From positions 385,587-449,586 of the forward strand of contig OZ246412.1 in NCBI GenBank assembly GCA_965231075.1: 64,000 bases of DNA. The letters run 5' to 3'. Position 1 is the first letter of the stretch, and each line of letters begins with the position of its first letter. The stretch is from an uncultured Candidatus Saccharibacteria bacterium (GTDB taxonomy: Bacteria; Patescibacteriota; Minisyncoccia; RBG-13-40-8-A). Below, piece by piece: positions 41,219 through 41,976 of the stretch. A program made the translations under genes and the position numbers. A model generated the notes under the pieces. The model saw only the letters and a list, made by a program, of their open reading frames with translations. It had not been told where the DNA came from and did not search any database.

Positions 41219-41268
41219 TAATATTATTACGGTCAATTATCTTACGATCGTAAGATAATTGACCGTAA
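41219..41268. repeat. 50-bp repeat containing a 42-bp perfect palindrome (copy 1), ending 2 nt before the stop of the PaaX-like gene
   Basis: taatatta + ttacggtcaattatcttac gatc gtaagataattgaccgtaa; identical to 41927..41976. Confidence 0.9.
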
Positions 41269-41270
41269 AT

Positions 41271-41927
41271 CTATTTTAAATCAAACCACCTCTTTAGATC
41301 TTTGTCTTTTTCTATTTTGTCAACTATTAAAAATCTAATATCGTCTTGAGGGTTGTGCTTAGCAATAATCATTAGTTCTTCCATTTCTCTTTTAATGTCG
41401 TACGGAAAAACCCAAACACTTTTTTGAAGCTCCCTAAACCCTAACCACTTTAATCTCGTTCTTAAGAAGTCTCTGCTCTTTCTACGATCTTCTTTGACAT
41501 CAAAGATAATTACTCTCCATTTTTTGTCCCATTTTTCCTGCTGTTTTCTTTTGATATTATATTTTATAAACTCCAACACCCCCTTGTATGTCAGAAACAA
41601 TTTTTCGCTTTTTTTGTCTAATTTTATATATTGCTTATTGTGTAAATATTTAATAATTTTTCCGATTTCCCATTCTTTCTTAGCTTCAAGTTGGCGCTTT
41701 CTTTCTAAAAAATGTTTTTCTTCTTTGGAAATATACCAGCTATCAAATTTGTGGCAAGCATCATATAGTCTTTTTCCTCCCAATAAATCAACATAGGCCT
41801 CTCCTATTTTCAACGTTCCTGTTGTTATATCTTTAAATAACGCCATAACAACATGCAATACGTCTTGTGCTAAAGAACCGTCTTGCAATGAACCAATTTT
41901 ATAATTTCGAAAGGTTTTTTTTGTCAT
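41271..41927 (-). CDS. PaaX-family-like transcriptional regulator
   Basis: C-terminal segment WDKKWRVIIFDVKEDRRKSRDFLRTRLKWLGFRELQKSVWVFP matches the conserved PaaX C-terminal pattern (W..W..v.yd.pe..R..r..lr..L...GFg.lq.svWvsP). The N-terminal half is a plausible winged helix. Confidence 0.5.
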   Translation of the reverse strand: MTKKTFRNYKIGSLQDGSLAQDVLHVVMALFKDITTGTLKIGEAYVDLLGGKRLYDACHKFDSWYISKEEKHFLERKRQLEAKKEWEIGKIIKYLHNKQYIKLDKKSEKLFLTYKGVLEFIKYNIKRKQQEKWDKKWRVIIFDVKEDRRKSRDFLRTRLKWLGFRELQKSVWVFPYDIKREMEELMIIAKHNPQDDIRFLIVDKIEKDKDLKRWFDLK

Positions 41928-41976
41928 AATATTATTACGGTCAATTATCTTACGATCGTAAGATAATTGACCGTAA
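41927..41976. repeat. 50-bp palindrome-containing repeat (copy 2), beginning at the start codon of the PaaX-like gene and lying about 40 nt downstream of the clpB stop
   Basis: Exact 50/50 identity with 41219..41268. Confidence 0.9.

Follow-up and report, generated by a model that had tools for sequence, protein, structure and literature searches.

Two matched palindromes flanking a winged-helix/Cas2-like regulator gene in a Candidatus Saccharibacteria bacterium: putative twin operators of the encoded protein

Introduction

The closest described system to the one reported here is that of Escherichia coli PaaX, a repressor of approximately 305-316 amino acids (aa) composed of an N-terminal winged helix, a Cas2-like middle domain (PF20803), and a phenylacetyl-CoA-binding C-terminal domain (PaaX_C). 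PaaX binds a 39-bp dyad operator, TGATTC-N27-GAATCA, and represses its own promoter (Px) by steric hindrance (PMC9493321). In this study, we analyzed a stretch of 64,000 nucleotides (nt), referred to as the window, from contig OZ246412.1 (positions 385,587 to 449,586; assembly GCA_965231075.1) of an uncultured Candidatus Saccharibacteria bacterium, in which a gene encoding a 218-aa PaaX-like regulator (41271..41927, minus strand) is bracketed by two identical repeats, each carrying a long palindrome. An original prediction made from this DNA had offered three readings of the layout, namely repeated intrinsic terminators, duplicated operators of the regulator, or att-like ends of an inserted cassette.

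The locus shares with the E. coli PaaX system the order of the first two domains, as a putative operator a very long dyad element (~39-42 bp) with boxes located far from the dyad, and, as far as four relatives indicate, a box coinciding with the -35 element of the regulator's own promoter, which would correspond to the autorepression at Px (PMC9493321). It differs in the absence of PaaX_C, in the conserved CGRYCG centre of the palindromes, in the second site directly past the stop codon, and in the lack of paa genes nearby. A repressor gene placed between its own operators is familiar from phage lambda, whose CI repressor is encoded between OR and OL, and cooperative looping tightens its autoregulation. 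The regulator gene is likewise flanked by candidate sites for its own product, but the fold is unrelated to that of CI, the spacing between the sites is 0.57-0.84 kb across the family (median 0.66 kb) compared with 2.4 kb in lambda, and helical phasing is not seen.

The class of mechanism considered here, a PaaX-type repressor with a long dyad operator and autoregulation, is already known. Three features appear to be undescribed, namely that the gene is bracketed by two matched sites throughout the family, that the CGRYCG core is universal, and that the effector domain is missing; literature searches on PaaX together with Cas2 or Patescibacteria, and on palindromes of Cas2-like winged-helix proteins, found no description of this regulator family. 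As set out below, comparison between related loci makes it probable that the palindromes are twin operators, recognized as duplex DNA by a dimer of the encoded winged-helix/Cas2-like repressor.

Results and discussion

A perfect repeat pair encloses the regulator gene

A repeat search of the 64-kb window recovered a perfect direct repeat with copies at positions 41218-41268 and 41926-41976, in agreement with the original prediction except that its true length is 51 nt and not 50. The 42-bp palindrome centred on GATC, which had also been predicted, is present and perfect in each copy (41227-41268 and 41935-41976); it reads TTACGGTCAATTATCTTAC-GATC-GTAAGATAATTGACCGTAA, with 19-bp arms around GATC, and the two palindromes are the longest hairpin-type inverted repeats within the window. 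Identity between the copies is complete (51/51) and includes 9 nt beyond the symmetric part. The half-site is ACGGTCAATTATCTTACGA, the two sites comprising four half-sites, and the outer-box sequence is GGTCAATT.

The predicted position of both copies relative to the neighbouring genes was confirmed as well. Downstream of the minus-strand regulator gene, the copy at 41218-41268 (dyad core CGATCG, 41245-41250), the proposed second operator, stops 2 nt short of the regulator stop codon; its palindrome begins 2 nt past the stop, and its far end lies 42 nt before the -35 element of the next gene. The upstream copy at 41926-41976 (dyad core CGATCG, 41953-41958), the proposed autoregulatory operator, covers the first two bases of the regulator ATG, with the palindrome edge 8 nt before the ATG and its other end 40 nt past the clpB stop codon. 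Neither the full palindrome nor the 19-nt half-site with at most 3 mismatches was found at any other position of the 64 kb, with approximately 0 matches in 100 shuffles of the sequence; a half-site scan of a genome collection that did not contain the source genome returned 3 chance matches, in unrelated taxa only. The palindrome bracket is real and non-random. Dozens of such palindromes at unrelated gene ends, which the original prediction had named as the mark of a generic repeat or terminator element, were found in none of the sequences examined.

Bracketing recurs throughout the regulator family

The comparison set consisted of close-homolog loci and 80 more distant metagenomic loci, 70 of the loci being non-redundant for the flank test, in which the 5' flank of each locus was locally aligned with its 3' flank with mismatched-locus controls setting the threshold at their 99th percentile. 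In 59 of the 70 non-redundant loci, the two flanks shared a dyad element of ~40 bp above this threshold, and the bracketed family members reach down to ~30% protein identity. An unbiased palindrome search in all loci likewise placed the best palindromes within tens of bases of the gene start and stop. In the closest relatives, two palindromes also flank the gene and are centred on ACGATCGT, with different arms. Across the family, the palindromes measure 30-50 bp overall, with arms of 11-27 bp that vary by lineage around a near-invariant centre, R-CG-RY-CG-Y; this centre is almost always CGATCG, CGGCCG, or CGGTCG/CGACCG, with CTATAG and CCATGG as rare exceptions.

The two copies within a locus are 88% identical, compared with 46% between loci. 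In 274 kb of sequence from 56 loci, the locus-specific palindrome was confined to these copies, the exception being four loci in which additional tandem copies adjoin the gene. The downstream palindrome follows the stop codon at a median distance of 16 nt, and the centres of the two sites are 0.57-0.84 kb apart (median 661 bp). Palindrome quality does not differ significantly between the downstream and upstream copies (Wilcoxon p = 0.30). Since a large family shares this layout, the bracket reflects a genuine design rather than a chance feature of one locus.

The extent of the identity in the window (51/51, including 9 nt outside the palindrome) is what a neutral, recent local duplication without function would leave behind; such an explanation is nevertheless extremely improbable, given that the two-copy layout recurs with different sequences in 59 of 70 loci and down to ~30% protein identity. 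As a statement about the window lineage, the earlier suggestion of recent duplication or ongoing gene conversion is reasonable, considering the 9 nt of additional identity and the 88% average identity of the copies in relatives. Perfect repeats also extend beyond the symmetric element in other loci, over 52/53 nt in L047, where they run into the coding end, and over 94 nt in L074. In L028, a perfect inverted repeat of 52 nt surrounds the gene; these extended repeats fit occasional duplication or gene conversion between copies. Asymmetries are private to one copy in 66 of 103 cases, a pattern compatible with separate drift of each copy about a symmetric optimum that selection maintains.

Some family members (L028, L074, L079, L055) possess three or four sites in a 2+2 or 2+1 arrangement. 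In L028 the sites lie at 1610-1661, 2436-2487, and about 2760, and in L074 two palindromes are found on each side of the gene within a 94-nt direct repeat (291-384 and 1047-1140).

The regulator is PaaX-like in fold

The regulator consists of a winged-helix-like part at the N-terminus and a C-terminal Cas2-like domain (PaaX_M, residues ~131-207). PF20803 (PaaX_M; E = 6e-21, residues 131-207) is the sole Pfam domain found; the protein ends only 11 residues past it, and the PaaX_C effector domain gave no Pfam match. The score against the NCBIfam PaaX equivalog TIGR02277 (32.3 bits) is far below the cut-off of 264.55. The designation PaaX-like, used in the original prediction, is therefore only partly appropriate: the first two PaaX domains are present, but the effector domain is missing and no paa genes are found near the regulator, so the name holds for fold and not for function. 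The family is large: at least 2,705 cluster representatives (50% identity) match at E <= 1e-10, and most of them are 175-200 aa in length.

An AlphaFold2 model (pLDDT 69) comprises helices and a beta-hairpin wing followed by a beta-alpha-beta-beta-alpha-beta domain. Its top Foldseek match is E. coli PaaX (8a39; 138 aligned columns), followed by Mycobacterium tuberculosis Rv0674 and, after it, numerous chains of Cas2 and VapD, the Cas2 chains matching at a probability of 0.9-0.99. Among 139 diverse family representatives, D143, R152, and S170 are conserved in 100% and Q168, W133, and P175 in 99%; the Cas2 hallmark residues, i.e., the Asp ending beta-1, the Arg in alpha-1, and the Q-x-S motif, thus belong to the 99-100% conserved positions. 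In an alignment, D143 corresponds to the Asp of Cas2 SSO8090; the family retains the hallmark residues, but Rv0674 carries Thr in place of this Asp.

The regulator shares with Cas2 and VapD the ferredoxin-like fold and these hallmark residues, but it is fused to a DNA-binding domain, scores just below the cut-off of NCBIfam Cas2 TIGR01573 (22.3 compared with 24.5 bits), and has neither a cas1-sized neighbour nor CRISPR array-like repeats nearby. A defence-system model search produced only weak Cas2 matches. Profile searches detected no recombinase or transposase domain in the regulator, including no match to Y1_Tnp, which the same method does detect in a true Y1_Tnp protein at locus L095.

Anatomy of the sites

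Measured in fixed windows, symmetry mismatches amount to 6% beside the core, rise to 26-29% at positions 2-5, fall to 6-14% at positions 7-13, and become random beyond position 18. This profile defines a site of ~40 bp that is bipartite, with the core R-CG-RY-CG-Y and outer boxes 10-17 bp from the dyad. Such an element, with symmetric boxes at this distance, resembles the operator geometry published for PaaX, and its size and geometry would suit binding by a PaaX-type dimer (PMC9493321).

The DNA core and the Cas2-like hallmark residues are near-invariant, and it is the arms and the protein's N-terminal part that vary. Outer-box identity between loci climbs from 0.36 to 0.6-0.9 with rising identity of the winged-helix region, and the partial correlation of the outer boxes is 0.105 with the winged-helix region compared with 0.028 with the Cas2-like domain, suggesting a weak coupling of outer-box sequence to the winged-helix region. 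The simplest reading of this conservation pattern is that a Cas2-like dimer would contact the core and the winged helices would contact the boxes.

The near-uniformity of the CGRYCG core across loci, set against the variable N-terminal part of the adjacent protein, could also be explained if the palindromes bound another factor, such as a nucleoid protein, a methyltransferase, or a restriction-type enzyme recognizing CGRYCG. This is improbable: the lineage-specific arms co-vary, albeit weakly, with the winged-helix region of the neighbouring protein, the sites occur only beside members of the regulator family and are lost with the regulator, and although the window contains 16 CGRYCG hexamers, only three of them lie in long palindromes.

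The other use to which a palindrome can be put is as an RNA hairpin, and the original prediction had listed repeated intrinsic terminators, after clpB and after the regulator, as one reading; bidirectional terminators or stabilizers of transcript ends belong to the same explanation. As in Rho-independent terminators, both window copies form a stable stem-loop directly past a stop codon. The 19-bp stem folds as RNA at -29 kcal/mol (z about -8), copy 1 resembles a terminator on both strands in a consensus scan, and the downstream copy lies between convergent genes at some loci. On the other hand, the palindromes lack the family-wide U-tract expected of terminators: the 10 nt after them contain 3.4-3.6 T, equal to the background, and at least 6 T are present in only 18% of downstream copies (family mean 3.6 T). 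The tail after the stem in the window is TAATATTATT, which does not qualify as a U-tract. Pairing mismatches on the gene strand comprise 48 G:T, 47 A:C, and 126 of other, mostly transversion types; the equality of G:T and A:C argues against an RNA stem, which would favour G:U, and over half of the mismatches are neither.

Further properties of the palindromes are difficult to reconcile with terminators. The least paired positions (2-5) lie by the apex, for which a hairpin gives no reason, and neither the pairwise, lineage-specific matching of the two copies nor a universal CGRYCG apex is needed in a terminator. In convergent loci a separate, GC-rich classical terminator follows the palindrome, the upstream copy overlaps a -35 element in four relatives and is consequently not transcribed with the gene, and the palindromes vanish where the regulator is absent. 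Rfam searches yielded no family matches, with only sub-threshold microRNA-hairpin noise. A role as terminators or transcript-end hairpins is therefore disfavoured and we regard it as unlikely.

Promoters around the sites

Support for palindromes acting as operators of the regulator comes from the promoters of relatives. In L004, L005, L008, and L009 (48-58% protein identity), the upstream dyad lies exactly 12 nt before a -35 element, TTGAC(G/C), which is followed by 17 nt, a -10 element (TATAAT, TAAAAT, or TATGAT), 6-7 nt, and the ATG. The right outer box thus coincides with the -35 of a leaderless regulator promoter, giving a classic autorepression layout in these four relatives, and owing to this overlap the upstream copy lies outside the regulator's own transcript. 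In a crude scan of all upstream copies, 18 had a promoter-like match; counted from the dyad, the -35 lay at +11 to +13 in 7 of these and at +4 to +6 in 3 more; downstream copies mostly had a promoter 23-67 nt further on.

The upstream palindrome of the window, like that of its two closest relatives, stops 8-10 nt short of the ATG. Several candidates for the regulator promoter in the window were considered and set aside as unconvincing, i.e., a leaderless start, a -10 within the right arm (GATAAT), and, upstream of the palindrome, a weak TTATTT-17-TAATAT.

The gene downstream of the regulator has a sigma-70-type promoter, TTGACA-18-TATAAT (41155..41184, minus strand), with 12/12 consensus matches, and its ATG lies 8 nt past the -10, making the transcript leaderless or nearly so. 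Equivalent promoters (TTGACA-16..18-TATAAT) are found in L001, L004, L005, L008, and L009, mostly 6-8 nt before the ATG, with longer leaders in L004 and L009. The distance from the downstream dyad to the -35 of the next gene is 64 nt in the window and 25, 36, 36, 37, and 58 nt in relatives, which places the downstream site upstream of, and not on, the next promoter. The downstream copy was detectable at 27 of 37 co-directional loci and at 6 of 15 convergent loci, a marginal difference (p = 0.054).

The spacers of these promoters contain a conserved T5-N-A5 motif (e.g., AATTTTTGGAAAAG), which recurs in the promoters of the L005 and L008 regulator genes themselves.

Synteny and mobility

The promoter described above precedes a gene encoding a 203-aa protein (40535..41146, minus strand) that has a hydrophobic stretch near its N-terminus and belongs to no known family; its membrane location was assigned by eye from the translation. 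It is followed by a gene encoding a 1049-aa surface-type protein with an LTD and a beta-helix (37370..40519, minus strand), the next gene of a conserved membrane-LTD(-Wzy_C) operon. The order of regulator, membrane gene, ~1,050-aa LTD/beta-helix protein, and Wzy_C is kept down to 48% protein identity, and the gene at 40535..41146 is the conserved downstream partner and likely target of the regulator. On the other side, clpB (42017..44650, minus strand) is the upstream neighbour, a position at which the gene varies among relatives. Further neighbours include pilin-like genes in the window and TPR, Peptidase_S74, and Wzy_C genes in relatives. The window has a GC content of 35%, and the few named relatives of the neighbouring gene are assigned to 'Candidatus Paceibacterota', in keeping with a small genome of low GC content.

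The original prediction had proposed comparing the clpB-membrane-gene junction between relatives with and without the regulator. Homologs of the membrane operon without the regulator were found in seven more distant contexts (L091, L093, L095, L097, L098, L099, and L100/L101). Palindromes precede the orthologous membrane gene in 6/6 contexts with the regulator and in 0/7 without it (Fisher p = 6e-4); this co-occurrence indicates that the palindromes belong with the regulator and are not a leftover scar.

These observations bear on the reading of the palindrome-gene-palindrome unit as a present or past mobile or rearranging cassette, with att- or terminal-inverted-repeat-like ends and a Cas2-like nuclease acting at the CGRYCG core. 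The tight bracketing in most family members, the presence or absence of the regulator at the same clpB-membrane-gene junction, at which L095 has an IS200-like Y1 transposase gene with palindromes of its own, the perfect repeats running past the symmetric part in some loci (including the inverted repeat of L028), the central RY orientation that flips between copies at some loci, and the complete conservation of a Cas2 catalytic-type Asp would all suit such a unit. The layout also resembles that of RAYT/REP and IS200/IS605 elements, in which a gene lies between hairpins and the palindromes are specific to the protein lineage; in contrast to them, the regulator has no Y1/HUH domain, its palindromes are not dispersed (two in 64 kb) and show no strand asymmetry, and synteny is kept.

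The distribution of the gene speaks against mobility. The regulator is single-copy in the window, related loci contain no extra palindromes in 274 kb, and near-identical regulator genes in unrelated contexts were not seen among the compared loci. In the most similar regulator pairs that allowed their flanks to be compared, nucleotide identity of the flanks was equal to or higher than that of the genes, which points to vertical descent, and the downstream partner is retained down to 48% identity. No single-copy scar, i.e., no CGRYCG palindrome, remains in the seven regulator-less loci, the regulator has no relatives in viral contigs, no recombinase or transposase domain is present, and the private asymmetries fit drift from a symmetric optimum. 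The cassette reading of the original prediction is accordingly disfavoured, and we consider it improbable. Only a small probability is given to a self-contained, Cas2-derived module that would nick, excise, or invert DNA, its Cas2-type active-site residues, fully conserved among the representatives of a family of some 2,700 sequence clusters, acting on the CGRYCG cores on both sides of its own gene, or to a domesticated relic of a new kind of hairpin-ended mobile element.

The junction itself has accommodated other genes. In L095 (5159-5945), an IS200-like Y1 transposase gene (5215-5910), flanked by two similar 25-27-nt palindromes (ATGTGTGAAGCT.AGCTTCACACAT), occupies the clpB-membrane-gene junction where the window has the regulator. 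Just upstream of the membrane operon, L099 has an 88-aa ArsR-type HTH (helix-turn-helix) gene (3628-3894), and L100 has a 101-aa gene with no assigned family (1188-1493). The clpB-membrane-gene junction appears prone to insertion or replacement of genes, and an ArsR-type or other gene just upstream of the operon suggests non-orthologous replacement of the local regulator.

Twin operators as the favoured explanation

Of the three readings in the original prediction, duplicated palindromic operators with autoregulation remain the best supported, and the comparative evidence extends this reading to the whole family. In the mechanism that we propose, the Cas2-like domains would dimerize over the dyad and contact the core R-CG-RY-CG-Y, with the two winged helices reading the lineage-specific outer boxes 10-17 bp on either side. 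The upstream site would autoregulate the regulator gene; in the window, it may do so by blocking read-through from clpB as a bound-protein roadblock, or by acting on a promoter that was not recognized. The downstream site may control the promoter of the membrane-protein/LTD operon, loop over ~0.7 kb with the upstream site, or both. For this copy, one can envisage action on the next promoter from an upstream position, cooperative looping, or insulation against read-through, of which the first two, which are not exclusive, are most likely. Helical phasing of the inter-site spacing was not detected (Rayleigh p = 0.28-0.82), a test that is uninformative on looping. The 51-nt identity in the window would reflect recent duplication or gene conversion on top of selection matching both sites to the same protein.

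Several points weigh against the twin-operator reading. The whole case is built on comparison between loci. The structural model of the regulator is of moderate confidence, with residues 1-72 poorly modelled, and the fully conserved Cas2 catalytic-type Asp, together with other polar residues, would not be needed for plain dimerization. No sigma-70-like promoter was found between the clpB stop codon and the regulator ATG in the window, L001, or L003. The downstream dyad is too far from the next -35 (64 nt, or 25-58 nt in relatives) for simple occlusion, and the presence of the downstream copy also where the next gene is convergent means that it cannot be a promoter operator only. Finally, any transcript running through the site would fold into the 19-bp stem, which could cause pausing or termination irrespective of what the element is for. 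With these points taken into account, we still regard twin operators of the regulator as the probable explanation.

Other features of the window

The membrane-protein gene contains, 20-30 codons into the reading frame, an A-run, a short hairpin, and a T-run that together are terminator- or attenuator-like (window 41074-41091, minus strand). Corresponding elements are present in L004 (2078-2105), L005 (5807-5834), L008 (3051-3078), L091 (6051-6078), L093 (6019-6047), L095 (6034-6062), L097 (6043-6071), L098 (4036-4066), and L100 (1631-1658), that is, with or without the regulator, and the stem sequence varies between homologs yet stays complementary. In the window, the RNA fold is weak (-9.5 kcal/mol, z = -2). 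This hairpin may be an attenuator, or it may be a by-product of coding K-K-I-T-V-V-I-F-F.

An island of 61-64% GC (36899-37300) in the 35% GC window contains a 107-aa open reading frame (ORF; 36946..37269, minus strand) with no family match, located upstream of an extracytoplasmic function (ECF) sigma factor gene (36304..36867). After this ORF lies a perfect palindrome (36899-36934) with GC-rich 17-bp arms, a CGACCG centre, and a following T-run. It was rejected as a member of the palindrome family on account of its unrelated GC-rich arms, its T-run, and its position after a different gene, and it has the appearance of an ordinary terminator. The ORF resembles a small, acquired gene followed by a classical terminator, and the CGRYCG centre appears coincidental.

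Elsewhere, five copies of a TTCGAAGTTCGRAGTTCGAAGT-like motif lie inside long minus-strand ORFs, and the pilin-like gene region contains two tandem paralog duplications with 79-83% identity (window 18619-27896, 47501-48551, and 60252-60804 for both observations).

Conclusions

Bacteria of the candidate phyla radiation (CPR) have tiny genomes with very few recognizable regulators, almost none of which has a known binding site. In the family described here, the two flanks of each gene directly reveal its putative cognate site, which would provide hundreds of predicted protein-operator pairs for the study of specificity evolution. The combination of a universal core, a universal Cas2-like domain, and a site directly past the stop codon is unusual for a transcription factor and raises questions of looping, insulation, and residual nuclease activity. 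For the organism, the predicted role is the local control of a surface-protein operon encoding the membrane protein, the LTD/beta-helix protein, and Wzy_C, which plausibly functions in host attachment.

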